Source: a virus | Reading direction: 5' to 3' (one strand) | Length of the DNA stretch: 64,000 nt | Virus record (IMG/VR): IMGVR_UViG_3300021961_008157 | Program-made: the position numbers and the translations under genes | Shown here: one piece after another, positions 45,435-63,998 of the stretch | Position numbering within the stretch: the stretch's first letter is position 1 | Layout: each line of letters begins with the position of its first letter | Notes under the pieces: model-generated | Databases searched by the model: none | Told to the model about the DNA's origin: nothing | Seen by the model: the letters and a program-made list of their open reading frames with translations, nothing else

Positions 45435-46418
45435 TTATTTAGATTTAGCAAGTGTTTTAGGAATTATTTTTGCCAATGCTTGCCCGCCTTTTAAGCTGCC
45501 AATTGTTCCGGGTTTGACCAATTCCAACCAAGTGACGTTTTGTGTATTGTTCCAAGAAAATTGTGTGCGATAGCCAATTTTTCGAGCTGCTGCCCTAACA
45601 CGCTTACCGGGTGTGTAAAAGCAGTAGTGCCTCTCAACTAATTCTACAGCATGATAGCGATCGCAATCGTTAAAAGTCATTGCCAGTGTGCCTCCAGGTC
45701 TTAATTTTTTATAAATGTTTTCAAGATAGCTTTCCAATACTTCCATAGACACAAATTCAAAAAAGTTAAATGCAAGACACAAGCCCATTTGGTTGTTGGG
45801 CAACTCCGATAATAAATCAGTGTCTGTTGGTAATTGGGGATAGATGCGTAATCGATTTTTGTAATCGTCGTTAAATTTAGACAGAGCCGGCTCTAATAGT
45901 TCATTACTATAATCAACCAAATAAAGAGGATCAAGTGCTACTAGGTCATCTATAAAAGATTCTGTTGCTGGCCTAATAATCAAGCCAGCACACTTCCAGT
46001 CAGCTAGCGATTTTAAGCGATTTTGCAACATTGTCTTGGCTTCGTCGGAAATTGTTAAGCGTCGATCTAGAATCTGCTGATCAACTTTTTTATCTGTTTC
46101 TTCACCAAGAGTCTTATAATTGTTTGCAATTACAGCATACCGTGCTGAACTGCTTTCATAGTAGTCTTTTTCCGCAAACTCAATCATAAGATCAAGCTCG
46201 CGTATTAGCTCATTTAGTGTAGATCCAAACTGATTAAATGTATCAATAAGATTGTATAAATCTTCTTCAATAGTTTCAGTAAATGTGCGCGGCTGTATGA
46301 CACTGGTTTTAACGGTATGAACAACATCTGACAATTTGTGCCGTGCCTGATACTGTATGTCCTCAATGTCATACTTTTGTAGTTGATTGCGATATGCAAT
46401 AAGTTCACTTAATTTCAT
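45435..46418 (-). CDS. Methyltransferase-like protein with N-terminal coiled coil
   Basis: LRPGGTLAMTF motif. Confidence 0.5.
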   Translation of the reverse strand: MKLSELIAYRNQLQKYDIEDIQYQARHKLSDVVHTVKTSVIQPRTFTETIEEDLYNLIDTFNQFGSTLNELIRELDLMIEFAEKDYYESSSARYAVIANNYKTLGEETDKKVDQQILDRRLTISDEAKTMLQNRLKSLADWKCAGLIIRPATESFIDDLVALDPLYLVDYSNELLEPALSKFNDDYKNRLRIYPQLPTDTDLLSELPNNQMGLCLAFNFFEFVSMEVLESYLENIYKKLRPGGTLAMTFNDCDRYHAVELVERHYCFYTPGKRVRAAARKIGYRTQFSWNNTQNVTWLELVKPGTIGSLKGGQALAKIIPKTLAKSK

Positions 46419-46421
46419 ACA

Positions 46422-49079
46422 TTACCATTCAAATAAAGTTTGGAATGTGTTTTCAGTGTTAGTGGCACTGGTCAAATCCCACTCAAGCACACCTAGCAAA
46501 TTGTCGATCTTTTGATCAACCACAGTGGCTTCCATAGCACCGTCATCAAATGGCAGTTCCTTAAACCACTCGGGCAGTCGCTGTTCATCTGTGGGATAAC
46601 CAATACTGGTCCAGCCCAGTGGATTAGCTTTTAGCTTGCACACAATAGTTTTCATACCATCAACAATTTGCATTGAGTAGTTATCGCCATTCATACGCCG
46701 TAAATTATTCCAGTTAAGTGCTGCTCTAACGTGCCCGGGCATGTTGGCTTTGCCTAACCGTTCTTCCTCAGCGGCATACTTGGTTAAGTTATTAACACGT
46801 TTGGGACTGCCCTTTTCCCAACCTGGGCGATCCATGAACGTATACTTAAATTCGCGTATGCGTTCAACAATCTTGTCCCGCGGATGACCACTCAGAGCCA
46901 TGTTCAATATTTCTAACAAAAAATCTTGAATCACACGCGGAGTATCACTGCGTTTTAGATCCAAGCCCATGACCTTGGTCTTGCCAATAGCACCGTTAAT
47001 GTCTAGGCGTTTGCCTTCAAGATCAACAATGTTTACAGCATAACGCTTTTTAGTAATAAACAAGCCACGATCGGCTACCAGTTCGCGACCAGCCCGGATC
47101 AACGCCCCCATTTCTCGCGGGCAGTGAAATGCTTGTTCCATAAATCCCGGGAAAGAGCCATTCACTTGTTCAGCAATAGAATCATACAGCGCAATACAAG
47201 TTTCTTTGTTCCATTCCATGTTTCCTGCTTCAACTTCTTTTTTCACTGCGTGCCAAGCAGTAAAGTAACAACTGTCAGTGTCGCCATAAATGATAGCGTC
47301 GCCCACATGGTCATATACACCAGTGATACACTCATTGATATATGCATCCATGTGCTTGGCAATTGAACGACCTGTTAGCGTAGTTGATTGTCCAATCCGA
47401 TGATCAAAGAAACGGCATCCAGGATTTAAAATAGCGCCATACAAACTGTTTAGATTAATTTTCTTAACCAATTGACGCTTGTCCCAAAACGCTTCTTCTT
47501 TTTTATCCTTTGCATCGCGTTTCTTGGCTTGCATTTCCTTACGCTCCGCATACCAACGCTCCAACAATCCGGGAATGATACCTTTCTTTTCATATGTAAG
47601 AATAGTGCCATTGGCCGACAATATCCATGGACGATTCGAATCAAATATAATGGACCAAATTTCCGCAGCCGAGTACACATCCGACTCGCCAGACTGCCAG
47701 TCAACGGTGATTTCAGTGCCGCGTTGTTGTTCCATAACAGCAGTATACTCTAAACTGCCAAACAATCCCTCCCACGCCGCTGCAAAACTTTGTCCACTGT
47801 TGATTTTATCTTTGATGTATCTATCAGTCATGATAGGACGCAGTTGCCCCACAACTGTTTCGGGTCCCATGTTCATAGCACGAATCGCTGACGGATATAG
47901 ACTGTTAATGTCCACTGATCCAATCCACTCGCTCATGCCCTTCTTGGGATAAGCCACATATGCACCGGCCGCTTGTGTGTTGTCATCAGTTAGGCGCTGC
48001 TGCCGATTGGGCACAACCATGCCCCGCTCGTGTGCTTCGTTAATAATAGCCTGCTCAGTCACAGCCACAGCACCCATGGTGGTCTGTAGCAACACAGTAT
48101 TAGCATGTGCCAGCGTGTTGGCTAGATCTAGAAACTGTAGTTTTTTGTCTAACTTGTTTAGTAGTGCTGTGTCTTGGCGGTTGTATGCAATAAACGTTTT
48201 GAAGTGCTGGTTATACAGTTGATCCAGCGTACCTTCAAACTGTGTCTTACGCTCGCCCAACTCGTATTCAGCAATAGCATCTAGACTATAACTGTGCCGT
48301 TCTTCATAAGTGTATTTCCGATACAACTGCATATAGTCCATATGCACACGACCAATCAAGTCATAAGTTTCTTGCTCGGCACCAAAGCGTTCAAACTTCC
48401 GTGGCTTGGGAAACTGCCCCCAAAGGCAAAACTTTCGTGTATCGTCCTTGCTGAGTATGCGTGTGATGCGATTGATAGTGTAAGGAATATCATAGCCTTC
48501 GGAGTTCCACCCACTAAGCACATCTGCATCGTCGATCAGGTCCAGGAACATTTTGAGCATGTCCGCTTCGTTGTCAAACAAAAATGTGTTATCAAACTCG
48601 GCAACCAACTCTTGTGCTGTTTCCATGCTAATGGAACGCGGAGGCACAGCCAGCGTTACCAACTGATCCAGCCAATCCAGGTATACCGAAATCGCTGTTA
48701 TGGCGTTGAATGGATCTTCGGTGGGCGAAAAGCCGCGAACCTTGTCAAAGTCTACTTCAATGTCGAAAAATGCTGTTTGTAGTACAGGGGAGTCGGCATC
48801 TTTATAGTTTTCTTCAAAGCAGCGAAAGATAGGATTGATATCGCTTTCATACAACTGCTTGCTGCTGTGCATTCGAATTTCTTTGCGAAATTCTTTGTTG
48901 TTCCGAGTGGAGAATCTGCTGACTGGTGTGCCGTAGATGCTTTGAAACTTACCCCGCGGGTCATCGTAATAAAAAACAAAACTAGCAGGATATTCTTTAT
49001 AGACACGATGACCATTTACACGCTCTACAACGTGAATGCGATCAGAATCTCTATCAAATAGTGCATCTACATATGACAT
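46422..49079 (-). CDS. Family B DNA polymerase
   Basis: Exo DIEVD, DINSLYPS, K..LNSLYG, YGDTDS, KKRY. Confidence 0.97.
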   Translation of the reverse strand: MSYVDALFDRDSDRIHVVERVNGHRVYKEYPASFVFYYDDPRGKFQSIYGTPVSRFSTRNNKEFRKEIRMHSSKQLYESDINPIFRCFEENYKDADSPVLQTAFFDIEVDFDKVRGFSPTEDPFNAITAISVYLDWLDQLVTLAVPPRSISMETAQELVAEFDNTFLFDNEADMLKMFLDLIDDADVLSGWNSEGYDIPYTINRITRILSKDDTRKFCLWGQFPKPRKFERFGAEQETYDLIGRVHMDYMQLYRKYTYEERHSYSLDAIAEYELGERKTQFEGTLDQLYNQHFKTFIAYNRQDTALLNKLDKKLQFLDLANTLAHANTVLLQTTMGAVAVTEQAIINEAHERGMVVPNRQQRLTDDNTQAAGAYVAYPKKGMSEWIGSVDINSLYPSAIRAMNMGPETVVGQLRPIMTDRYIKDKINSGQSFAAAWEGLFGSLEYTAVMEQQRGTEITVDWQSGESDVYSAAEIWSIIFDSNRPWILSANGTILTYEKKGIIPGLLERWYAERKEMQAKKRDAKDKKEEAFWDKRQLVKKINLNSLYGAILNPGCRFFDHRIGQSTTLTGRSIAKHMDAYINECITGVYDHVGDAIIYGDTDSCYFTAWHAVKKEVEAGNMEWNKETCIALYDSIAEQVNGSFPGFMEQAFHCPREMGALIRAGRELVADRGLFITKKRYAVNIVDLEGKRLDINGAIGKTKVMGLDLKRSDTPRVIQDFLLEILNMALSGHPRDKIVERIREFKYTFMDRPGWEKGSPKRVNNLTKYAAEEERLGKANMPGHVRAALNWNNLRRMNGDNYSMQIVDGMKTIVCKLKANPLGWTSIGYPTDEQRLPEWFKELPFDDGAMEATVVDQKIDNLLGVLEWDLTSATNTENTFQTLFEW

Positions 49080-50670: not shown

Positions 50671-52248
50671 TTACTTGCCGGCTACAGCCAGCGCAGCACC
50701 TTTGTTAAAACTGGGACTCCAGGGACTATTAGCCTGCTGTAATCCCTTACTCTTGCTCCATTCATAGCCAGCACGATGTCCCGAACAGTCTTTAGTGCAC
50801 TCACTGCCCAAAAACTTTAGTTCATTCAGTTCATCTTTAAATCCGCTCAAGTTGCGCTCAACCTGACTGACCCAAGCACTAACATCACTGGAACCAATTT
50901 CTTCCACATCGCCTACAAATTCAGCAACACTATCAATGGCGTCACCTACAGCAAAAGGTCCATATTTTTGTAATAAGTCTGCTCGCTGCCTTAAGATGCG
51001 GTTTGTAATAGCATTGGCCACAGGATTGTCTTCTTGGCCTTCGTCCACACCTTGCTGTTCATGCATATCGCGAAGCTCTTTATACTTGTCTAGTAAGTCT
51101 TTGTGTTTGCCAATCTCAGTTGATTTCAATCCATAGCGAGCAGTTTTAGCGTTGTCTAAATGATATTTGGCTCTCTTATGATCACCACGTTCATGGGCAT
51201 CGATAGCCTTCTTCATAGTTGTGGCAAACGACGATTCCGCTACACCTTGTAGTTCTTTTTGTGTGGCGCCTGCTTTACGAGCAGCTTCAGCATCTTTAGA
51301 ATCTTTTGTCTTGCGATATTTTGCTAATAATTCTTTGCGGGTGCCACCTTGACTTGGGGGATTGTAATCTGTGGCACTTGCGGTTTCATCCACACCGTGT
51401 TCAGGCTTAACATCCACAACCTTAGCCATACTATGATGCTTTAGGAAACGCTCACGAGCAGAACGAGGACCAGTCATACCCCGAACACGGAACTTTTTAA
51501 CCTTACCGTCTACTTCAGCAGTGACAATGTAATCGCGAACCATTTGAGCAGCGGCTTGTAGACCACTTGGATCTAATGCTGCTTCATCCATATCGTCACG
51601 GAACTCACCGCTGTCGTGCATACGTGCTTCTTCTTCGTCACTATCAGCATAGTCGTTAAAACTTACATCGCTAGAGTGAAAACTATGCTTACCGTGATTG
51701 TATAAGTTTACAATAACAAAACGCTTGTCTTGACCAAAATCATCAATAACGCCAGTTGCACCATTGAACTCAACGTTGCCAGTGATAACAACATCATCAC
51801 CAATGTTTAAGCCTTCTGCGGATTCCGCCACACCTTCTTTTACGCTGTCAATGATTGCTTTAATTTGCTTCAAGTGATTTAATTTACTTGCTAATTGTTT
51901 AGCATTAGCATATTGGCTGCCAGATGTTGTGCGCTCATAGTCGCCATATCTTTTTAATTCATTTGCAACTTGTGTAATTTCAGCATCAATGTTAGGATGC
52001 TTTGCTGCCCAACCTTGTGCAATGCGCTGGTCTCTTTCGCTACTTTGCGCATCACCTTCACTCATACCCGAGCGTAGTTTCTTGCTAAACTCCTGAGCGC
52101 TTTTCTTTTCAGCTTTTTGGAAACGGCGTTCAATGTCTTTTAACCCGCGTCTGTGTTCGCGATCAATTTTCTTATCTTGTGCCGCAAGTTTATCTATAAC
52201 ATCCTGAAAAGGATTGGCATTTTCATTGAAAAGGTCGTTTAAGTTCAT
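50671..52248 (-). CDS. Modular putative head-cargo polyprotein with GV[A/D]E linkers
   Basis: N-terminus MNLNDLFNE; EGVAE, HGVDE, QGVAE and QGVDE separate unrelated segments. Confidence 0.65.
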   Translation of the reverse strand: MNLNDLFNENANPFQDVIDKLAAQDKKIDREHRRGLKDIERRFQKAEKKSAQEFSKKLRSGMSEGDAQSSERDQRIAQGWAAKHPNIDAEITQVANELKRYGDYERTTSGSQYANAKQLASKLNHLKQIKAIIDSVKEGVAESAEGLNIGDDVVITGNVEFNGATGVIDDFGQDKRFVIVNLYNHGKHSFHSSDVSFNDYADSDEEEARMHDSGEFRDDMDEAALDPSGLQAAAQMVRDYIVTAEVDGKVKKFRVRGMTGPRSARERFLKHHSMAKVVDVKPEHGVDETASATDYNPPSQGGTRKELLAKYRKTKDSKDAEAARKAGATQKELQGVAESSFATTMKKAIDAHERGDHKRAKYHLDNAKTARYGLKSTEIGKHKDLLDKYKELRDMHEQQGVDEGQEDNPVANAITNRILRQRADLLQKYGPFAVGDAIDSVAEFVGDVEEIGSSDVSAWVSQVERNLSGFKDELNELKFLGSECTKDCSGHRAGYEWSKSKGLQQANSPWSPSFNKGAALAVAGK

Positions 52249-52949
52249 TATGCTTCCTCTATGTAGTCAGCACTTTCGTCTTGTTTTTTGCTTCGTGCAA
52301 GATACATTTCCAATGCCATTTGTGCTTGGTCTAAATTTTTAAAGCGTGACTTTGTTGCACGACCATTGTGGCGCACTTCAAAGCCACATAGTTCATCGCC
52401 GTGTATTTCACAGATACGACCATCTTCTAGCGTGATTGTTTTAACGGGCGACGACTCAGTGTATATAGGCTCTTCTACTGGAGCAGTAGGCATTTGGATC
52501 ACTGGCTCCTCGTCAGTGGGATTTTCAGCCACAGCAGTAATTTGTTTGGCAATAATGCTACGGTCTTTATTATTTTTTTCTTTGATGTCGCTGTCGCTTT
52601 TAGTTTTTTCTTTTAAGTCTGTATCTTTCTTTTCAGTAGCAATACTGTCAAGATATTCAGCAAAAGATTTTTTAACTTTTTCTAGTTTGTCTTCACTGGT
52701 GACTGCTTCTTCGATTTTTTCTTCGTCTTCTTCCTCAACGCTTTCATTGGCGCCAACCATGTAGCCTGCGCTGGGTGCTTTTTTATTTGGATCGCCGCCT
52801 AGCACTGGACCTTGCTTGGGCATGCTAAACAATGCTGGCATCTGTGGCACAGACTTTTGTTGACTGTTTAGGCCAGACTTAACAGAAGCAGGTGTAATGC
52901 TGCCTTCAATTACAGCCAGGCGTTGCATTATAGTGTAAATTTCATCCAT
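52248..52949 (-). CDS. Acidic hypothetical phage protein
   Basis: Intact ORF in the late cluster. Confidence 0.6.
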   Translation of the reverse strand: MDEIYTIMQRLAVIEGSITPASVKSGLNSQQKSVPQMPALFSMPKQGPVLGGDPNKKAPSAGYMVGANESVEEEDEEKIEEAVTSEDKLEKVKKSFAEYLDSIATEKKDTDLKEKTKSDSDIKEKNNKDRSIIAKQITAVAENPTDEEPVIQMPTAPVEEPIYTESSPVKTITLEDGRICEIHGDELCGFEVRHNGRATKSRFKNLDQAQMALEMYLARSKKQDESADYIEEA

Positions 52950-52951
52950 GA

Positions 52952-53392
52952 TTATTCCCTAACGTCCTTTAGAAAGCTACGCAATTGCCAAGCATACTTG
53001 TTTTGCTGACTCAGTCGTTCAGCAATAAAGTTGGCAATGTCTTGTTTGTTTTCAGCTTCAGCATCAGCAAAACAACTGTTCAATAGGTCTACCATTGTTT
53101 GGCTGTCTGCCAGTAGTTCTTGGATCATTAGTTTGGCCCGGGGTATTTTTGTTTGGCCGGGTATTTGTGTCAATTCCTGAAAGCGTTCTAAGCTGCCAGG
53201 AGCGTATTCGTCTAAACTTCGTATATACTCAGCCAGTGGATCAATGGCTTCGTACGCATCTTGGTATATCTCTCCAAAAAAATTGTGTAACTGTGCAAAG
53301 TCGCTGCCTTCAACGTTCCAGTGAAAGTAGTGAACTTTTAGATAGTAGGAAAACTGGCTGGCCAGTAGTGTTTTTAGTTGATCAGTTAGCAC
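52952..53392 (-). CDS. dps: Dps / ferritin-like DNA protection protein
   Basis: HYFHWNVEG.DF..LH..F, D.LAEYIR.L, W.LRS. Confidence 0.9.
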   Translation of the reverse strand: MLTDQLKTLLASQFSYYLKVHYFHWNVEGSDFAQLHNFFGEIYQDAYEAIDPLAEYIRSLDEYAPGSLERFQELTQIPGQTKIPRAKLMIQELLADSQTMVDLLNSCFADAEAENKQDIANFIAERLSQQNKYAWQLRSFLKDVRE

Positions 53393-53576
53393 GACGTTTC
53401 TTTCCTTTTTTCATATAACTTGGAGTATTTGGAGTTGCATCCGTAGTGTATTTACCAGAAAAGAAGCTGCCGCCGTTTCTACTAACCATGCCCAGCGGAG
53501 CAGCTACTGGTGCTATACCACCTGCGCTAGTGGCGCCAGCTGACGCATTTTCGCGAATAAATTCGTGTGCTTTCAT
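53382..53576 (-). CDS. Small putative virion peptide
   Basis: N-terminus MKAHEFIRE, Gly/Ala-rich core, basic tail. Confidence 0.55.
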   Translation of the reverse strand: MKAHEFIRENASAGATSAGGIAPVAAPLGMVSRNGGSFFSGKYTTDATPNTPSYMKKGKKRRAN

Positions 53577-53854
53577 TGTGTAATTTTTAAAATATTGTTG
53601 GTAATGCGTCCGGGACCGTGGTCAACACGGAGGTTGTTTATGTGCAATGTTGCTACAGTGGGATCAAGCAATTGATAACTGATAACGTATTCCCCAGGTT
53701 CTGCTTCAATTTGGAGCATTTCTTCAAGATACTCGTTGGTCCACTTCCATGTGCGTTCAGCAAACAGTTCGTCATCAACATACACACGGTATACAGGCGG
53801 TGTGCCCGACCAAGTGCAATCAAGATCACACAGTACACGAACAAATTGTCTCAT
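53573..53854 (-). CDS. Hypothetical protein
   Basis: Preceded by TAAATA; coupled to the next ORF. Confidence 0.55.
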   Translation of the reverse strand: MRQFVRVLCDLDCTWSGTPPVYRVYVDDELFAERTWKWTNEYLEEMLQIEAEPGEYVISYQLLDPTVATLHINNLRVDHGPGRITNNILKITQ

Positions 53855-53872
53855 CCTGTATTTAGCTACAGT

Positions 53873-54061
53873 TTATTGAACTTGTTTGATAGAACCTATG
53901 TGCCAGTCTTGTATATTATATTGGGTTTTTAAGATGTTCCGGGCTACAGTAATGTTTGGAGCCCAAGTTGTTACGTTAACCAAAGAAACATATCGTGGGT
54001 TTTCAATACGGATTTTAGCAATCCATTGCTTGGCTGACCCGACAATTTCTTTGGCTTTCAT
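53873..54061 (-). CDS. Small hypothetical protein
   Basis: N-terminus MKAKEIV; TAAATA upstream. Confidence 0.5.
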   Translation of the reverse strand: MKAKEIVGSAKQWIAKIRIENPRYVSLVNVTTWAPNITVARNILKTQYNIQDWHIGSIKQVQ

Positions 54062-54094
54062 TGTGTATTATTTACCAGATAAATGGTCATAATT

Positions 54095-55081
54095 CTATGC
54101 ATTGTGCCCATATACTTGATAGTATCTTAGAATCATTGAATCTGCAAAAAATTTGTGTGATAGTAGTCCGGGATGGCTGCCGTCAGAACCCAGGTCAATA
54201 TAATGATCATCGTGGTTCTGCCCAAAAATTCCATGTAATGGAATAAAATTCGGCATTCTTTCCATGTCTGACTCAATGCCTTTGATTAGTGTTGCTAAAA
54301 TAAATTTAACTCCGATTTTATTACAAAAATTTATAACTTGGTAAATCGACGTTATAGATTTGTACTGTGTATGGTCAGACAAAAAGTATTCTTTAGTTAT
54401 TAACTTTGCAGCCAGACTGCTTGCGTGACTTTTGTTTATATTTGTAAATTTCACCGACATCGACATATCGTCCCAAAATGAAAATCTTTTTGGATTTGTA
54501 ATCCCCCAAAATAAAATATCATTTTTTTCTAAGTCGGACCGCAAGATCTGATCGGCTGCCCACTCAATTGAACTCCCTGAGCGTGTCAGGAAAGAAACTG
54601 GAAGATTTAATTTTTCAGAAATTATATTTCCATAACGTTCGTGTTGTTGAACACCCATTCCGTCACTTATACTACATCCAGCAATCCAAATTTGCGGTTT
54701 TTCTGATCTTTTTGTGTCAGCAAGTTCCAGTGAATTCTTGGCTATCCCCTTTGCTTCATATCCATGAACAATTTTTGTTGGGTCCTTTGAGAATACTGTT
54801 AGATACGATTCGATCCATTCTTTTTGCTTGCTAGATTGAAAGAGAGATTGATCAGACCATTTTTCAGGAGGAGCATATATTATTCTGTTTGCCTGTCTTA
54901 AAACAGATGCAAATTGTACCAAATTGTCAAGGTCGCCAATACTGATATAGTAAGTGCCCGGTGATAGTTCTTTGTAATTTTTGTTGGTAATTAATACTGC
55001 ATCAAGATCATGTTTTTGTGCTGTTTCTGCCAAATACGGAGTTATATCGCCAACAAAAATTGTAATTTCTTCGGTGGCCAT
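54095..55081 (-). CDS. SGNH-like hypothetical protein
   Basis: AGCSISDG, GSS and DGSHPG motifs. Confidence 0.55.
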   Translation of the reverse strand: MATEEITIFVGDITPYLAETAQKHDLDAVLITNKNYKELSPGTYYISIGDLDNLVQFASVLRQANRIIYAPPEKWSDQSLFQSSKQKEWIESYLTVFSKDPTKIVHGYEAKGIAKNSLELADTKRSEKPQIWIAGCSISDGMGVQQHERYGNIISEKLNLPVSFLTRSGSSIEWAADQILRSDLEKNDILFWGITNPKRFSFWDDMSMSVKFTNINKSHASSLAAKLITKEYFLSDHTQYKSITSIYQVINFCNKIGVKFILATLIKGIESDMERMPNFIPLHGIFGQNHDDHYIDLGSDGSHPGLLSHKFFADSMILRYYQVYGHNA

Positions 55082-55087
55082 TGAATA

Positions 55088-55717
55088 CTACTTTGTAGAT
55101 TTAGCGGCGTTCTTTTCCTTTACAGCACCCTCGGGCATGTAGGGAAAACTTACAGGATGTCGAAAACATGCTTTAGGATCGCCTTGCCCCGCTTCGATTA
55201 AAAATGCTGTTTCGGCGGGCACTTGTCCCATAGGGCAATAGCATGTGGCAATGCCATTTGGTCCCTTTTCGCAATTCCAGCTAAAACAGTTGCTGGCATT
55301 GTAGCCTTGCTTTAGATCGGCGCTGCATTTTTGAACCACAACTTTCATGTCTTTGGGCTTGTGGCTGAAGTTATTGGCTTCTTGTGGATACTCTAGCCGC
55401 GGCCAAAATGTGCTCCATACATGTTTGCTGTCAGTGGGCTCGCAACTGCCCTTCATGTTGCCCATGCTGGTGTCAGCAATATTGGGACCGTTTAATATGG
55501 GGCAACGGCACACCACTTCAGGATATGAATTGCCAGCTGAGTTAGTAATCATTCGCTGCGTACCATCGGCATTCATTACAGGCTTACAAGTACTGGCTGC
55601 ACAAAGCGCAAATTCGCCTTGGCAAATGGTCAATCCCGGAGGTGCTTTGGGTTTTGATTGTGCAAATGCTGCACTAGCCAGTACTAAACTGGTTAAAAAT
55701 ATTACTAGTTGTTTCAT
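55088..55717 (-). CDS. Secreted cysteine-rich protein
   Basis: Signal peptide, many Cys residues. Confidence 0.65.
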   Translation of the reverse strand: MKQLVIFLTSLVLASAAFAQSKPKAPPGLTICQGEFALCAASTCKPVMNADGTQRMITNSAGNSYPEVVCRCPILNGPNIADTSMGNMKGSCEPTDSKHVWSTFWPRLEYPQEANNFSHKPKDMKVVVQKCSADLKQGYNASNCFSWNCEKGPNGIATCYCPMGQVPAETAFLIEAGQGDPKACFRHPVSFPYMPEGAVKEKNAAKSTK

Positions 55718-55718
55718 G

Positions 55719-56606
55719 TTAATCCGCCTTAATTTGTACGTTACTTATACTCATTGATGTGGTGCTACCACACATTGCACCCCATGAGCATGAACCATTC
55801 CACCAGCCCTGGGGTTGCCCGGGACTCCAACCGCCCTGCCAAATACTAGCATGAATCCAATAACCATTGTTCATGCTGGTTTTAAGATCGTTCATGTTAA
55901 TAGAACCGCTGCCACTATATCCAGACCCAACAGTTGAATCATACACTACCACGCTGTTGCTCCCTTGAGTGTATGTGACTTTATATGTGGGAGTGTCACC
56001 ATAGGTAAAGTCAGCAGTCATTTGTACTGGTTTGGTAATGTCAATAATGCCGGCTAACTTGTGCGATCCCCCTGATGGATTGTCGCTCATTTTACTAGAA
56101 TCATAGCAGCTGGTGTTCAATGCTTTGTCAGTATAGCTAAGTTCAAATCGTTGTGGTGCATTTATGCCACCGTTGCCTGTGTGAATTGTAGTTTGAATTA
56201 CTGCGTTGGCGTTGGATTCAAGCATGTCAATTTCACGGCAATTTTGATCAGTCAAGTTGCCCCCAGCATCACAATAGTCTTTGCCCGAGTTTGAACGGGT
56301 GGGATTGGTTGGATTGCTTACCATATAAAAAGTATGATTTACAAAATTACTAGTGGCTCGGCTGAGATCAACAGTGGCTGTAATTTGTGTGATGTTTTTG
56401 TATGATTGCTTGCTTACCACTCGTCCCGCGGCACACGAAGACGTGCCAAAAGACACAGCGCCCGGTGTATTCACATCAGGATTGGTGTCGCAACTTTTAT
56501 AGTCTACTACAAATGTTGGTGTGTATGTGGTTTGTGCTGTGCTTGTTACTGTTGGTTTACATCCGACTAATAATGATAAAAATACCAGTGTTACTAATTG
56601 TTTCAT
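55719..56606 (-). CDS. Lipoprotein with GH7/GH16-like (clan GH-B) glycoside hydrolase motifs
   Basis: Lipobox LVGC; YCDA...CREIDMLESN. Confidence 0.6.
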   Translation of the reverse strand: MKQLVTLVFLSLLVGCKPTVTSTAQTTYTPTFVVDYKSCDTNPDVNTPGAVSFGTSSCAAGRVVSKQSYKNITQITATVDLSRATSNFVNHTFYMVSNPTNPTRSNSGKDYCDAGGNLTDQNCREIDMLESNANAVIQTTIHTGNGGINAPQRFELSYTDKALNTSCYDSSKMSDNPSGGSHKLAGIIDITKPVQMTADFTYGDTPTYKVTYTQGSNSVVVYDSTVGSGYSGSGSINMNDLKTSMNNGYWIHASIWQGGWSPGQPQGWWNGSCSWGAMCGSTTSMSISNVQIKAD

Positions 56607-56645
56607 GTTACTTCCTTCAATTTTATTTAACAATATAGACGGTCC

Positions 56646-56930
56646 TTACCACCATTTCATTGCCACACCAAATCCAAATACATTTACACAAGCAAAGTAT
56701 GCTGTCAGGAGCATGGGCCACGGAATGCCCCGGCGGTAATACGCATACACTCCGGCGATAGAACCAATGAAAAATCCGGGATACACAATACGCATGTCAG
56801 GATTGTCAGCAGTTAATGCCAGCGTTAAACTGGCTCCTACAGTTGTTATAAAACTAACCAGCTCGTAGTAAAAGGCAGTGCGATCGATTTTATAGCTTTG
56901 GATCCAAAAGGCTATTATTTTTTGTTTCAT
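56646..56930 (-). CDS. Small three-TM membrane protein
   Basis: Hydrophobic segments. Confidence 0.65.
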   Translation of the reverse strand: MKQKIIAFWIQSYKIDRTAFYYELVSFITTVGASLTLALTADNPDMRIVYPGFFIGSIAGVYAYYRRGIPWPMLLTAYFACVNVFGFGVAMKWW

Positions 56931-56949
56931 CGTTTGTTGCGTGTTTTGC

Positions 56950-57048
56950 CTATAAAATTCTGATCATTACCATTACTGTTATTACTGCCACTGCCGCTAT
57001 TAGTATTAGATCCGACACCGTTTCCTTGATCTTGTTCTTGTCCATCAT
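56950..57048 (-). CDS. Putative single-TM mini protein MMDKNKIKETVSDLILIAAVAVITVMVMIRIL
   Basis: Below the ORF-track cutoff; ATGA-coupled to the upstream gene; flanked by a 24-bp imperfect repeat. Confidence 0.45.
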   Translation of the reverse strand: MMDKNKIKETVSDLILIAAVAVITVMVMIRIL

Positions 57049-57347
57049 CGCTTGCTGCGTGTTTCGCCCATGGACATTCCCCATGTGCCATCTTCATCTA
57101 CGCCGCCTGCTCGTGCGTCCTGCTGCGACATTTTAGCTGTTTCTGCATTCCGTGCAGCGTCGGCAGCTTGTGATTGCCAGCTACTTTCATCATCAACGTT
57201 CCCAGTTTCTTCTTCCTCAATGGGCACACAGTTGTTGACTCGCACGCCACCTTTCATTTTGGTTTTGGGATTGCCAATCTTTTTACCTGACCAGCATTTG
57301 GGATCTAGCCGTGTTTTTTCTTCAATTATGATGTCTTGGATTTTCAT
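57045..57347 (-). CDS. Small putative virion protein
   Basis: N-terminus MKIQDIIIEE, CW.G.K...VNNCVP module, GVDE. Confidence 0.6.
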   Translation of the reverse strand: MKIQDIIIEEKTRLDPKCWSGKKIGNPKTKMKGGVRVNNCVPIEEEETGNVDDESSWQSQAADAARNAETAKMSQQDARAGGVDEDGTWGMSMGETRSKR

Positions 57348-57359
57348 ATGTACCTTTGT

Positions 57360-59354
57360 TTATGTTCGGCTGGTATAGTCCTTGAAGTTTTCCGCACGAT
57401 CTTGTAACCCCCGCATACCCGGATTGATCATTCGGGTTACTGCGGCTACGTCATTGTAGTTATCTACATTGGGCTGCACACGATGTTTCCAGTACCACAC
57501 AGCCACTTGTGCTGCTACTGCTGGATCTTCAACTAATTCTGGTCGTTGTTCAAGTGGTAATCCCAGTGCTTGTCCAGCTACTTTGTAGTTGTGTCGCCCG
57601 GTCAATTGTATAAACCCACGACCTTTGTAGCGTTCACCATCACCAGCAAACTTATTGCCTAGTGCCCGTGCTTTCTTTGGTGCGTGTTTAGGATCGTATT
57701 TCCGAAAGTCTAACTTACCGCCAATTTCTTTTAGTCGTTTAAAGTCCAGTGTTTCGTGGGCGCATTGTGCCATAAACGCTGCTAGTTCAGTGCCGGCTAG
57801 ACCAGCACGTTGAGCAACAGATTTTAACACATTTTCAAGTGGACTGTTTGTTATATTTTTTATTTGCGCCGGTGCTTTGGGTTGTGCCTGCTTGGCTGTT
57901 TGTGCTTTTTGCACGCCTTGGGCAATGGAACTTTTTGCAACTGGTGCTTGGATTTGTTTTGCTGGTTGCTGTGGTGCAGGAGCAGTTGCTACTGGAGCGG
58001 TGCTGCTTGAACTCCATTTATTAAACGCATCTTTTGCAGCCATACCACCAGCGCCACCTGCACCAATAGCGCCAGCAATAGCCAAGTTTCCTAGAGTGTC
58101 CTTCCAACCTTCTCCGAGTGGCAATGATTGTTTTAAGAACTGCTCACCTTCACTGGTAACATACCAATATCCGTCATCGTTGATAGCATAACCATTGCTA
58201 TCTAAACTGTCTAACACGTTGTCATATTCTGCGGTGCGTGACTCATCTTCGATAAAATCCATACCTAATTTTGCTGCTGTATAGATAGCGTGTAATACTA
58301 ATATCTTGCCGTAACCCTTACCTTTGTATTCGGGATTGACTTCAGCAATGCTGCGTCCACTGTTTGCGTCATATTGATAACCGCCTGCAGGTTTGCCGTT
58401 AACTGTCATTTCAGTAGCAAACTTATTACGACCTTTACGAACTGAAATAGCAACTTGCTCTACTGACTCCGCCACACCTTGCTTCTTTGCCCAGTCGTCT
58501 GGAGAAACTTTATTTTTTTCAATAAATCGATCGTGTAGTTTGCTCGGTGTTATTTTATGATTTTTGGCCACAGTTTGCATCATGTGATCTATGGCGTCAT
58601 AACTGTGGGGATCTTTAAGATCTTTTTCTAAATCTTCAACGCTGTCTTCGTTGGCTTTCTTTTTCCCACCTTTCATATTGGCGCACCAGTGATACATTTT
58701 GCCTTTTTCGCCTGAGTACTTTTTGGCCTTAGCCCGCAAGTCAGTTACTGAACCAGCGCAACTTGCGCCCGCTGCTTTTACACGACCTGGGCGACTTTTA
58801 CCTTTTACTTTACCGTCAGCAAAGTTTTCCGCCACACCTTGTTCCCAGATATTTTTACCCGGTTTGTGTTTGTCCCAGAATGCAGCACCGGCATCTGTTT
58901 GCTGTCCACTGCGGCGTATTCTATATCCCTTACTCTTAACATAATCATACATTGTGGCGGCAATGCCTTGACCACGGAAGCGTTCATCAACTTCTAAGTC
59001 TTGTGGATTGAGAACCATGCCTTGACTGTCATAATCTATTGTAAATAATACATGTCCTAATTCTCTACTACCTGCTGATGCCTTGACAAATACTTCTCCA
59101 TCATCATCATCTTTTTGAAGTAAAATGTTTATACCGCCGTAGTTTTCTCTGTTCTCTGCCACACCAGCGGTGCTGCCCAGTCCTGGTAGTTTTACACCAA
59201 TAACATCTTGCACCAAGTCCCAACCCTGTTTGTATTTTTTCGCAGCGATTAAACGTTTGAGTTCGGCTTTTTGCTCAGCCGTGGCCAATGTGAAAAACTT
59301 AAAAGTTTCCATTGCGCCTATGTTACGCTTGTAACTCAACTCATTTAATCGCAT
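57360..59354 (-). CDS. Modular polyprotein: two GNAT-like modules, small modules, C-terminal GH19 lysozyme
   Basis: FRGQGIA and YKGKGYG acetyl-CoA motifs; AQCAHET, YKGRGFIQLTGRHNY, VTRMIN; GVAE linkers. Confidence 0.8.
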   Translation of the reverse strand: MRLNELSYKRNIGAMETFKFFTLATAEQKAELKRLIAAKKYKQGWDLVQDVIGVKLPGLGSTAGVAENRENYGGINILLQKDDDDGEVFVKASAGSRELGHVLFTIDYDSQGMVLNPQDLEVDERFRGQGIAATMYDYVKSKGYRIRRSGQQTDAGAAFWDKHKPGKNIWEQGVAENFADGKVKGKSRPGRVKAAGASCAGSVTDLRAKAKKYSGEKGKMYHWCANMKGGKKKANEDSVEDLEKDLKDPHSYDAIDHMMQTVAKNHKITPSKLHDRFIEKNKVSPDDWAKKQGVAESVEQVAISVRKGRNKFATEMTVNGKPAGGYQYDANSGRSIAEVNPEYKGKGYGKILVLHAIYTAAKLGMDFIEDESRTAEYDNVLDSLDSNGYAINDDGYWYVTSEGEQFLKQSLPLGEGWKDTLGNLAIAGAIGAGGAGGMAAKDAFNKWSSSSTAPVATAPAPQQPAKQIQAPVAKSSIAQGVQKAQTAKQAQPKAPAQIKNITNSPLENVLKSVAQRAGLAGTELAAFMAQCAHETLDFKRLKEIGGKLDFRKYDPKHAPKKARALGNKFAGDGERYKGRGFIQLTGRHNYKVAGQALGLPLEQRPELVEDPAVAAQVAVWYWKHRVQPNVDNYNDVAAVTRMINPGMRGLQDRAENFKDYTSRT

Positions 59355-60959: not shown

Positions 60960-63900
60960 TTATCTCATCTCGGGTACTACTTCAATCTCGGCACTTTCTG
61001 GTGGAGGATTGTATCGTCCATTTCGAATGGCTGCCAACAACCATTCTTGGGCTTTGCGGTTAGCATCCCCTTGATTGTTGCCAATGCCACTGAGTCTGTG
61101 TATTTCTTGGCCGTTGACTTTAATTATCCATTGTCCAGTAAACTCACCGCCTGGTTGCTGTGTGCTTGCTGCGGGTTGTGGCTCTTGTTGCTGTGCTTGA
61201 GCAGCACGTTGGCGCTGTAGGTCTACAGTAGAACCAGGTAATGGACCACGGCGTAAACCAATTGAACCACGGGTCATGCCACTATCTCTAACCATTTCGT
61301 CTCTATACCTATTACCAATTTCTATAGCCATTTCGTCGTCGGCAGCATAGTATGTGCGATAAACTTGGCCAGTTTCGCGACTAAACATTTCATACTTTAC
61401 GCTTTGATTAGAACCAGTGGGTGTTATTGACATTGGACGATCACGCCTAAATTCTGAATCGCTGCCACCGGCTGGTTGCCCCAATGTCTGATTATCATCA
61501 CGTTGAGCTAACCAAACTTGATCTGGATGTTCTTGTCTCCATTGTCTTAACACAATATTGGCATCATCGATGTTAGCCGCCATGAATCGGTAATATACAC
61601 TGGTTCTATCACTTTCAGGTGTAATAACATAGTTACCGTCAGGGTTACTTGGACGACCATTTACTGTTGGTCCCGACCGTTGCCCAACTGCTTGTGGTTC
61701 ACCTACTGTTGCTCGAACTGGTTCTTTATTGTACGGTGCAACGGGTTTGGCTTCTAAGTTTGCAGCACTTGCCCAATCTGGATAATTCTCTGGTTGTGTT
61801 GCTATTCTAATCGCTTCTTCTTTGGATGACGCAACAACTTTAATGCTGGCCATATAACCTGGGCGGCTAACTTCCCACCAAAACTTTTCATCACCAGTAT
61901 CGCCCTTTTTAACCTTACGCTCTAGTTGTGCTTGTTTGATAAAACTCTTTAAATCTTCTTTAGGCATTTCACCTGCTACATACTTGGCAAAGTATTCCAA
62001 TGTGTCTTTGCCCGAGCCATTTGGTGACAGCACTTTGTATAACTTCTTCAAGTATTCTTGACGATACTTTTTAGGATCCATAGCAGCATCAGTAGCCACA
62101 ACAAAGCGCAGTAGTGTATTTTCTAACTTGTCTACATTTGCCGCATACTCACCCAACCAATCGCCCCCGGGACTGCGGAATTCAATATAGTTGCCCTTTG
62201 TATTGATGCTTGTGTATTTCTGTGTTTCGCCAGAGTGAATGATTTTAGTTGCCATCGCTTCTAAATTATCTTTCATTTTCTTTAGCAAAGCAGCCGCATC
62301 TTCGGGACGCTGATTTATACGATCGCGCACAATCCTCATAGCACTTTTAGTATATGTATTGGCTGAACGACCAAATTGATCCAGTACATATTCATCGCCT
62401 AACAGCAATGCCAGTTTAACATAGTCAAGTTTATCAGTTGACAAGTCGGGTATGCTAACATTCATATGTAAGCCGGTGGAATCGTTTGTGTACGCACCAA
62501 CTCTGCCTGCCCACTTTACAACTTTTTCCAAGTCATCGAGCATTTCATCTAGTGGTAGCGGAGGACTAATAAACTCAAGACCAGATTCGCCACTATTGTC
62601 GGGATCTAAACTGCTGTCAGGTTCAATAACATAGTCTGTGGCGTTCCGCTTGGCACCGTGATAACTTGATGAGTACTGAACTTTGCGACCAATAGCATCC
62701 TCAAAATCCGACGCAATCGATCCTATATCTGTTTCGGGTTCAGGGTTGTAATAATGTGGCCAAGCGATATCGTGGCTTCCGGAAATATCACTCATGTTGG
62801 GATAAACAGCGTCCAGGAATTCTCGCTCTTCAGTATTGTTAAACGCTTCTTCCCTGTAATCATCATATGCTTCTTGATGAAAACTGTTGGTATTTTCTAT
62901 TGAATACTCAACAAAGTTCTTCCAGTCTTCTTTAGTCAGTTCATGATCTTCGGGTAATTCTAATACTTCTCTAACATCATCGTCGCTGGCATTTTCTTTA
63001 ACCCAATCCCAGACACGTTCTTCCTCATCCTCTTCCCAGTTTTCATCTATACGCTCACCTAACCATTCAAAAAATTCATCTTGTAAATTTTCTATTAGGC
63101 GATCAACTTCACGGCGGGAGTTGTAGTCATTATCATGAAAGAATTCTCTAATGTCAGCCCAACTACGGCTGCGTTGATCTGAATCATAATCAGGTTCTAT
63201 GTCGCCGTCACCGTAACTATCTGTATCAACACCCGGAACGATCATTTCAAATTCCATGCCAGCACGAGCGTCAATGTTTCGTGCTAAATCGCGCAAAGAA
63301 CTAATGCTCATGTTGATTTCAAACAGTGCTTCTTCGGTTAATGATTCATTTACATTATAAGTAGGATCAGTTTTGACTTTCTTCATGCCCGCCGGTTGTG
63401 CAGGATCACGAGGATCAATGTCTGTTATATCCAGACCTGTAGCTTCTAAATCTTTAATAAACTTGTGTTCTGTATCTTCGTCGCCGAAACTGATGATAGA
63501 ACTGGGAGGTCCCTTGCCAAAATCGTGTTTACCAAGGCCCTTTAAGTTGCTGATGTGTTGTCCCAATTTGTACCAGTCGTATACATCGCTTACATCTACA
63601 CGCAAAGTACCCTTTGGCATAGTGGGTTTGGATTCTGGCCCAGGTGGATGATCAGGACTGTAATCTTCAGCAGTCCGGCCAGGTAGTCGCCCTGTTTCTT
63701 TAAACTCCCGCAAAGCATTGGCCAGCCCTTTCATCAACAGTTCAGGATGTCCTTGGCTGTCAGTGTTTAAATTTAATTTGTTGGCTTCTTTACCAGTGGC
63801 ACCGGGTTTAACATCTTTGGTCAGGGCCATAGACCAGCGCGGATCACGGGCCTGCTTTTTTGTTGGAATGTACCCCGAGCTTTCGTTGGCGTTGGCAGCA

Positions 63901-63998
63901 CGGCGCAGAATGTTTTTAACACCTTGGCGAGCTCCATATTTTAAATCGTCTTTAGAAATTCGACTGAGATGTACAGCAGATTTAACAGCTTCGGCACC
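60960..63998 (-). CDS. Large modular protein with amidoligase (COOH-NH2 ligase type 2) domain; 5' end beyond the window
   Basis: GMEFE, EPDSSL, GLEFISP, STGLHMNVS, KYTSIN and IEFR motifs; frame stays open upstream of 63830 to the window edge. Confidence 0.75.
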   Translation of the reverse strand, partial: GAEAVKSAVHLSRISKDDLKYGARQGVKNILRRAANANESSGYIPTKKQARDPRWSMALTKDVKPGATGKEANKLNLNTDSQGHPELLMKGLANALREFKETGRLPGRTAEDYSPDHPPGPESKPTMPKGTLRVDVSDVYDWYKLGQHISNLKGLGKHDFGKGPPSSIISFGDEDTEHKFIKDLEATGLDITDIDPRDPAQPAGMKKVKTDPTYNVNESLTEEALFEINMSISSLRDLARNIDARAGMEFEMIVPGVDTDSYGDGDIEPDYDSDQRSRSWADIREFFHDNDYNSRREVDRLIENLQDEFFEWLGERIDENWEEDEEERVWDWVKENASDDDVREVLELPEDHELTKEDWKNFVEYSIENTNSFHQEAYDDYREEAFNNTEEREFLDAVYPNMSDISGSHDIAWPHYYNPEPETDIGSIASDFEDAIGRKVQYSSSYHGAKRNATDYVIEPDSSLDPDNSGESGLEFISPPLPLDEMLDDLEKVVKWAGRVGAYTNDSTGLHMNVSIPDLSTDKLDYVKLALLLGDEYVLDQFGRSANTYTKSAMRIVRDRINQRPEDAAALLKKMKDNLEAMATKIIHSGETQKYTSINTKGNYIEFRSPGGDWLGEYAANVDKLENTLLRFVVATDAAMDPKKYRQEYLKKLYKVLSPNGSGKDTLEYFAKYVAGEMPKEDLKSFIKQAQLERKVKKGDTGDEKFWWEVSRPGYMASIKVVASSKEEAIRIATQPENYPDWASAANLEAKPVAPYNKEPVRATVGEPQAVGQRSGPTVNGRPSNPDGNYVITPESDRTSVYYRFMAANIDDANIVLRQWRQEHPDQVWLAQRDDNQTLGQPAGGSDSEFRRDRPMSITPTGSNQSVKYEMFSRETGQVYRTYYAADDEMAIEIGNRYRDEMVRDSGMTRGSIGLRRGPLPGSTVDLQRQRAAQAQQQEPQPAASTQQPGGEFTGQWIIKVNGQEIHRLSGIGNNQGDANRKAQEWLLAAIRNGRYNPPPESAEIEVVPEMR

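Follow-up and report, generated by a model that had tools for sequence, protein, structure and literature searches.

Hydrophobic-x-Glu module borders and T4-like leaders suggest head-internal cargo polyproteins in an uncultured giant phage

In a stretch of 64,000 nucleotides from IMG/VR virus record IMGVR_UViG_3300021961_008157, which stems from an uncultured large phage and is hereafter called the window, we found a group of candidate cargo genes that are mosaics of small, independently evolving modules. As read from the sequences, each module border has a hydrophobic-x-Glu motif, mostly GV[AD]E in this phage. With a probability that we estimate at about 65% for the mechanism as a whole, these genes would specify polyproteins that a T4-type giant phage carries as cargo inside its head. 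An earlier note on this DNA had drawn attention to three open reading frames (ORFs), and these are indeed present on the minus strand at positions 57360-59354 (664 amino acids, aa), 50671-52248 (525 aa) and 57045-57347 (100 aa), with all the motifs named for them at their given places. It had overlooked further junctions in the 525-aa protein, the T4-like leaders, the conservation of the linker nucleotides and the fact that neighbouring genes (60960 to the window end, 52248-52949 and 53382-53576) are built in the same way. A six-frame translation of the whole window contains eight copies of GV[AD]E, all eight inside the three flagged ORFs; given the composition of 45 window genes, the 1,289 residues of these ORFs would be expected to hold 0.046 copies (Poisson P ~5e-16). 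These counts rule out chance or low complexity as the source of the motif.

Module mosaics and their borders

The ORF, Pfam matches and homology blocks together divide the 664-aa protein (57360-59354, minus strand) into six modules: a small N-module (residues 1-67), a GNAT domain (68-176), a basic Cys/His three-helix mini-protein (177-236), a helical module (237-296), a second GNAT domain (297-415), and a Gly/Ala-rich hydrophobic segment followed by a GH19 lysozyme (416-664). Three of its junctions read GVAE, at residues 64-67 (59154-59165), 173-176 (58827-58838) and 293-296 (58467-58478), while KANE ends the basic module (residues 233-236, 58647-58658) and PLGE stands ahead of the GH19 module (residues 412-415, 58110-58121). 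The proposed pair of GNAT domains and the lysozyme were both recovered by Pfam, with GNAT matches spanning residues 92-147 and 339-367 and a GH19 match spanning 522-629, each within a single inter-motif segment. The GH19 module scored 48.7 bits with PF00182 (cut-off 25.5) and matched solved phage GH19 lysins with an E value of 1e-18, the catalytic-region stretches A-Q-x-x-H-E and G-R-G-x-x-Q-x-T-G-R-x-N-Y being aligned. It is also the only part of the 664-aa protein that finds a match among cultured phages.

We then searched IMG/VR with the first 439 residues of this protein, which retrieved at least 595 loci, 80 of which were kept as related loci. BLAST of the window proteins against all ORFs of these 80 loci revealed homology blocks that start and stop at the motifs; for the 664-aa protein they span approximately residues 1-59, 59/65-176, 174-233, 233-293, 292-411/414 and 413-660. 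The second GNAT directly precedes the basic module in L003-L006, as does the N-module in L038. In the closest relative, L040, GH19 is found at the end of an amidoligase chain of 1588 aa, and L019 and L062 encode it as a separate protein. The description of these genes as unrelated modules joined by a linker thus holds, with both Pfam domains and homology blocks ending at the motifs. An invariant module order, which would have spoken against exchangeable cassettes, was not what we found, since modules occur at all positions in relatives, with other partners and in other orders. The cargo genes probably evolve through module swaps at the linker, as these alignments suggest.

The 525-aa polyprotein (50671-52248, minus strand) consists of a leader, MNLNDLFNE, and eight modules of 49-80 aa. 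Its junctions are GMSE (residues 61-64), GVAE (139-142), DMDE (219-222), GVDE (285-288), GVAE (335-338), GVDE (400-403) and LNE (474-476), the four GV[AD]E copies being encoded at 51823-51834, 51385-51396, 51235-51246 and 51040-51051 on the minus strand. DMDE, LNE and an N-terminal LFNE (residues 6-9) are borders beyond those previously listed. A phmmer search with this protein returned 1,827 cluster representatives that share single modules with it, and the modules at approximately 140-224, 220-297, 284-338 and 400-468 were found at any position in proteins of 126 to 1,506 residues. AlphaFold modelled the chain with a mean predicted local distance difference test (pLDDT) score of 77 and a predicted template modelling (pTM) score of 0.28, which in the model is a picture of well-formed beads without a fixed mutual arrangement. 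All five segments with pLDDT <50 (residues 62-66, 219-226, 286-303, 400-405 and 475-491) lie on or adjoin proposed sites, and at GVAE 139-142 the helix terminates exactly at residue 142. Linkers falling inside folded domains, another finding that would have counted against the proposal, were not seen in confident domains, the sole exception being GVAE 335-338 in a moderately confident helix. As a weak lead, the modelled module at residues 143-222 resembles a KOW/Tudor-type barrel; Foldseek of the whole model against PDB returned only weak KOW/Tudor-like matches, with E values of 2e-3 or worse.

The basic module of the 664-aa protein (58647-58826, minus strand; 60 aa, isoelectric point 10.2) proved the most useful for comparison. 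Its protein sequence shows 75-92% identity among hundreds of phage contigs of 170-355 kb (IMG/VR loci L001-L080), with an invariant Cys, a His-Trp-Cys and Lys-rich ends. The predicted fold is a small three-helix bundle (pLDDT 87-89) preceded by a disordered Lys/Arg arm, and Foldseek found no match for the module in PDB. In a collection of 5.8 billion proteins the module is present in 3,476 clusters of <365 aa, and it forms the last 60 residues of the chain in 99 of 118 cases. The residues NFADG that follow the second GVAE junction of the 664-aa protein are the usual post-junction start in this family. A Pfam re-scan identified ART-PolyVal, NUDIX, GNAT, Pol-beta nucleotidyltransferase and HicA as its fusion partners; ParB-like, NT5C and Cu/Zn-SOD partners come from precomputed or Atlas labels only.

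The third flagged ORF (57045-57347, minus strand) encodes a 100-aa protein made up of a leader, MKIQDIIIE, a Cys module, a GVDE junction at residues 82-85 (57093-57104) and a 15-aa tail. Its Cys module sits inside proteins of 399-911 aa in relatives, and follows GVAE in the closest one.

Junction rule, head protease and leaders

To define the border motif we compared the residues upstream of the basic module in two independent sets, the related loci and the 120 best of the 3,476 basic-module clusters. The last residue before the junction (P1) is Glu in all 65 distinct contexts of the related loci, and likewise in 116/116 junctions of the second set, with not a single Asp. Two residues before it (P3), V, L, I, M or F occupies 114 of these 116 junctions (V 75, L 15, I 15, M 7), and GVAE is the commonest tetrapeptide (17/116). 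Junctions of the other modules follow the same pattern. T4 gp21 cuts after L/I-x-E, and replacement of Glu by Asp blocks processing (PMC9026906); the cut sites of T4 Alt are ITE-6 and LTE-619 (PMC5694885). At the level of motifs, the hydrophobic-x-Glu junctions match the gp21 rule, with a P3 preference for Val here versus Leu/Ile in gp21 sites.

For the head genes we turned to related contigs that have these modules and whose gene order agrees with that of this region. A gp21-type Peptidase_S77 (PF03420) is encoded in 11 of 15 such contigs and in all seven that are >=90% complete, those without it being all <=48% complete, and a gp23-type capsid protein is present in 5/5. The order of the relatives' head genes, namely acidic core proteins, protease, gp22-like scaffold and capsid protein, is as in T4. 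In their capsid protein, the conserved region at the mature N-terminus is immediately preceded by a predicted maturation site, L-x-E followed by S/N-A-S/T-A-G; right after the polyprotein junctions, too, S, N and A are frequent. The junction rule, the relatives' gp21-type proteases and the relatives' capsid-protein site all fit the proposal, made in the earlier note, that the linkers are cut by the prohead protease.

The N-termini point in the same direction. The capsid-targeting sequence of T4 is MKTYQEFIAE (PMC8442874); the leader of the closest relative reads MRAHEFIAE, and basic-module proteins start with M-R/K-x-x-E-F-I/V-x-E. A loose version of this leader pattern, M-[KRN]-x-x-[DE]-hydrophobic, is found in 78 of 113 basic-module proteins, with <1% expected by chance. 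In stand-alone basic modules and GH19 proteins, the leader is placed directly ahead of the residues with which the corresponding window module begins after its linker; the stand-alone GH19 proteins of relatives, for instance, have a T4-like leader ending in ...QLDE and then the same GW start. Six ORF starts in the window bear the leader pattern, five of them within 50.6-59.4 kb, where they begin the 525-, 64-, 62-, 100- and 664-aa proteins. The only one outside this cluster belongs to a methyltransferase-like protein (MKLSELIAY; 45435-46418, minus strand).

Collectively, these features suggest the following course of events. The polyprotein chains would be made together with the head proteins, and a short leader at their N-terminus, resembling the T4 capsid-targeting sequence (M-R/K-x-x-E-F-I-x-E), would recruit them to the scaffolding core. 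A gp21-type prohead serine protease would then cut them after Glu at each border. The head would then contain, as separate proteins, two acetyltransferases, a very basic three-helix protein of 60 aa, a GH19 wall hydrolase with its hydrophobic segment, KOW-like and helical peptides, and an amidoligase from a neighbouring gene. Like Alt and the internal proteins of T4, these would exit with the DNA at infection. That these particular proteins are cut, packaged and injected is what we infer, as is the 'effector' label for many of the small helical and basic modules.

Linker DNA and rival explanations

The linkers are unusual also as DNA. In comparison with the 45 window genes, Ala is coded by GCG at four of the five GVAE sites against a 9% share, Val by GTG at six of the eight sites against 23%, and Gly by GGT at seven of the eight against 39%. 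Among related loci, 17 of 32 distinct GV[AD]E sites are exactly GGTGTGGCGGAA, and the Gly that follows the linker is coded by GGC in 9/9. We counted 23 distinct copies of GGTGTGGCGGAA in 1.29 Mb, all 23 in the GVAE frame, where 0.08 would be expected. The Ala codon is GCG at 20 of 31 linker sites versus 0-7% in the basic module used as control, whose silent sites are randomised at ~90% protein conservation; DNA identity of the modules to the window is merely 72-82%. Since silent sites are fixed in the linker and randomised in the control module, selection or gene conversion must act on the linker nucleotides. The likeliest reason, judging from these patterns, would be that the linker serves as a frame-preserving crossover point for module exchange, with a rare-codon pause at domain ends as an alternative. 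A bolder version, which we put forward tentatively and at less than even odds, is that the linker of 12-18 bases (CAA GGT GTG GCG GAA G..) acts as an integron of sorts at the protein level: a dedicated crossover site that preserves the frame and that giant T4-like phages keep fixed so that linker-bounded modules can move between cargo genes and phages and arrive with the head-protease signal. One short element would then couple module exchange, capsid loading and product release. Two further roles for the linkers were considered and rejected: inspection by eye found no start codon at a usable distance for an internal ribosome-binding site (Shine-Dalgarno restart), and no motifs for 2A-like skipping or intein-like self-cleavage are present.

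The silent-site conservation, the in-frame location of all 23 copies and the module swaps exactly at the linker would equally suit a linker that is a recombination joint or a flexible spacer and nothing else, with the chains remaining intact multidomain products, as in classical polyvalent proteins, uncut at the motif. There is precedent for this in the virion RNA polymerase of N4, a polyvalent protein that is packaged unprocessed (PMC5512222). We nevertheless consider it unlikely, because a joint or spacer has no need for a last-position Glu that is never Asp, with a hydrophobic residue two before it, at sites where the other residues and the DNA differ, nor for the recurrence of the same rule at the predicted capsid-protein maturation site of relatives and at leader ends. 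Cutting by the head protease might also occur and serve another end, the chains being scaffold or core material like T4 gp22, gp67 and gp68, and their fragments being expelled or acting as DNA-condensing filler instead of being delivered as effectors. Most modules of the 525-aa protein are in fact helical or basic peptides of 5-9 kDa without an enzymatic signature, T4 core proteins are cut to small fragments (PMC5694885), and charge is the only feature in which the basic module is like T4 internal proteins. This explanation is improbable in our view, given the enzymes in the 664-aa and neighbouring chains (two GNATs, GH19 and an amidoligase), the ART-PolyVal, NUDIX and HicA partners of the basic module elsewhere, and the separate gp22-like scaffold and acidic core proteins that relatives retain beside the protease. 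Finally, some other protease could cut outside the head, either a host enzyme or the product of the Peptidase_S8 gene in the window, an 887-aa protein with subtilase S8 and G5 domains (35354-38017, minus strand). Subtilases are not known for strict Glu specificity, and this one is unlikely to act as the junction protease. With a junction rule that equals that of gp21 and of the capsid-protein site, and T4-type leaders that point to the prohead, cleavage outside the head by any such enzyme seems very improbable.

Several observations nonetheless weigh against the proposal that the chains are head cargo cut by the prohead protease. The junction after the basic module is x-N-E in relatives (KANE in the window), with a P3 that is not hydrophobic, which by sequence argues against uniform recognition by the protease. 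[VILM]-x-E is a common tripeptide, with 10 and 11 copies in the two larger flagged proteins, so that the motif by itself is weak evidence. In the AlphaFold model of the 525-aa protein, GVAE 335-338 lies within a moderately confident long helix. The start of the 664-aa protein, MRLNELSYK, fits the leader pattern only loosely. Two copies of the T4 late promoter TATAAATA are present in the window, fewer than expected by chance, and neither is upstream of a cargo gene; the promoter gives no support for late expression. The flagged modules, the GH19 match aside, are absent from all 50,697 cultured-phage records searched.

Neighbouring genes and known systems

The window carries nine tRNA genes and a family-B DNA polymerase (46422-49079), has no near relative by DNA among 50,697 deposited phage genomes, and from 49 kb to its end has all real genes closely packed on the minus strand. 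The same architecture extends to a large polyprotein open to the window end (60960-63998, minus strand), of at least 1012 aa within the window, which holds a Pfam Amidoligase_2 domain and has relatives of 1266-2216 aa. It had been listed as an ORF of 956 aa (60960-63830), with an ATG at 63830 that falls within a conserved module, and relatives extend 400-750 residues further upstream. Its junctions include ANANE (63882-63893) and NVNE (63345-63356, both on the minus strand), the conserved module beginning after the Glu of ANANE with SSGYIPTKK....

The amidoligase part of this chain has a 30%-identical homologue (E 4e-20) in a cultured jumbo phage, Agrobacterium phage Atu_ph07 (L093, 155929-157431), where the portal gene lies two genes away. 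The size and order of the genes identify the homologue as gp196, for which 14 unique peptides (30% coverage) were detected in purified Atu_ph07 virions (PMC6102473 Table S5). It has a leader-like start, MRWQDIS, and L-T-E at residues 11-13. By analogy, gp196 supports a virion location for the amidoligase module family, a scope that stops short of the flagged genes, and it may serve as a laboratory model for leader function and cutting.

Smaller genes of the cluster share parts of this design. A 64-aa basic protein (53382-53576, minus strand) has the leader MKAHEFIRE, and the sequence after it, NASAGATSAGGIA, nearly copies the predicted mature N-terminus of the relatives' major capsid protein, NASAGSTSSGNIA (after L-K-E); it may mimic the protease site or the N-arm of the capsid protein, to judge from this resemblance. 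A 233-aa protein of the same mosaic family (52248-52949, minus strand) has a GANE junction at residues 66-69, and in relatives its two parts are separated by an inserted module of the 525-aa protein. A 62-aa protein with a weaker leader-like start, MKAKEIVGS (53873-54061, minus strand), is kept in eight related loci. Among the cultured phages searched, nothing matched the 525-aa protein, the 233-aa protein or the basic module. Also within the cluster are a Dps/ferritin-like protein (PF00210, E 8e-24; 52952-53392, minus strand), with 42-69% identity in 29 related loci, and, at 55088-56633 on the minus strand, genes for a lipoprotein-like protein (304 aa) and a Cys-rich protein with a signal peptide (209 aa), which have few or no relatives in related loci and look like add-on genes.

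The closest known counterparts are IPI, IPII, IPIII and Alt of T4 (PMC9026906, PMC3012670, PMC8442874, PMC5694885), which have a short leader with an E-F-I-x-E core ending in a gp21-type site. As proposed for the present phage, T4 houses small basic proteins and an enzyme in its head, with diverse, fast-changing cargo behind a conserved leader and Glu-specific cutting after hydrophobic-x-Glu, here known at the level of motifs. T4 cargo, however, consists of single units that are cut once (Alt twice), whereas up to nine unrelated modules per chain are seen here, with a site at every border and linker DNA fixed at silent positions. No T4 protein is related in sequence to the modules of this phage.

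Polyvalent proteins (Iyer et al. 2017, PMC5512222) also combine unrelated activities in a single phage-encoded chain for which packaging and injection are predicted, and include GNAT and peptidoglycan hydrolase domains. At least two disparate activities per polypeptide are likewise present here (GNAT, GNAT and GH19 in the 664-aa protein; amidoligase and other modules in its neighbour), and the basic module is elsewhere fused to ART-PolyVal (and to ParB-like domains, by label only). Processing by built-in zincin-like or assemblin-like peptidase domains was predicted for polyvalent proteins, and T4-type ADP-ribosyltransferases (ARTs) do not occur in genuine ones (PMC5512222). Pfam found no ART-PolyVal, ParB-like, MuF or zincin-like peptidase domain in the window proteins; in contrast to polyvalent proteins, the chains have no peptidase domain, and their borders carry what appears to be the head protease's own site together with a conserved nucleotide motif.

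In phiKZ, 201phi2-1 and SPN3US, many inner-body and ejection proteins are cut after Glu at a three-residue motif, S/A-x-E, sometimes at multiple sites, by gp175/gp245-type prohead proteases (PMC5694885, PMC9026906), which are distantly related to gp21. Those cuts remove propeptides and do not separate strings of unrelated domains, and P3 is small (S/A/G) there but hydrophobic here. Neither a T4-type leader nor frozen linker DNA is reported for them.

Polymorphic toxins, which bacteria secrete and which combine one variable tip with an immunity gene, have a short conserved peptide (VENN of CdiA, the Rhs pre-toxin motif) bordering a swappable domain; the junction DNA is conserved and thought to guide recombination, and in Rhs the junction is also a cleavage point. 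The genes described here differ in having many borders per chain, presumed phage head cargo, a protease that would act in trans, and no immunity genes. Our literature search found no published description of multi-site polyproteins in T4-type phages or of conserved linker DNA.

We regard the candidate cargo polyproteins as a variant of T4 internal-protein and polyvalent-protein biology. They would extend the T4 rule of a leader plus a gp21 cut from single internal proteins to strings of interchangeable proteins, in a very large and purely metagenomic family of thousands of clusters, none of them in cultured phages. The junctions and leaders offer a simple sequence rule for predicting the cargo of uncultured giant phages, namely acetyltransferases, ADP-ribosyltransferases, NUDIX enzymes, wall hydrolases and an extremely conserved basic protein of 60 aa. 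The conservation of silent sites in the linker further points to a built-in, in-frame exchange of modules, which may find use in engineering phage-delivered protein cargo.

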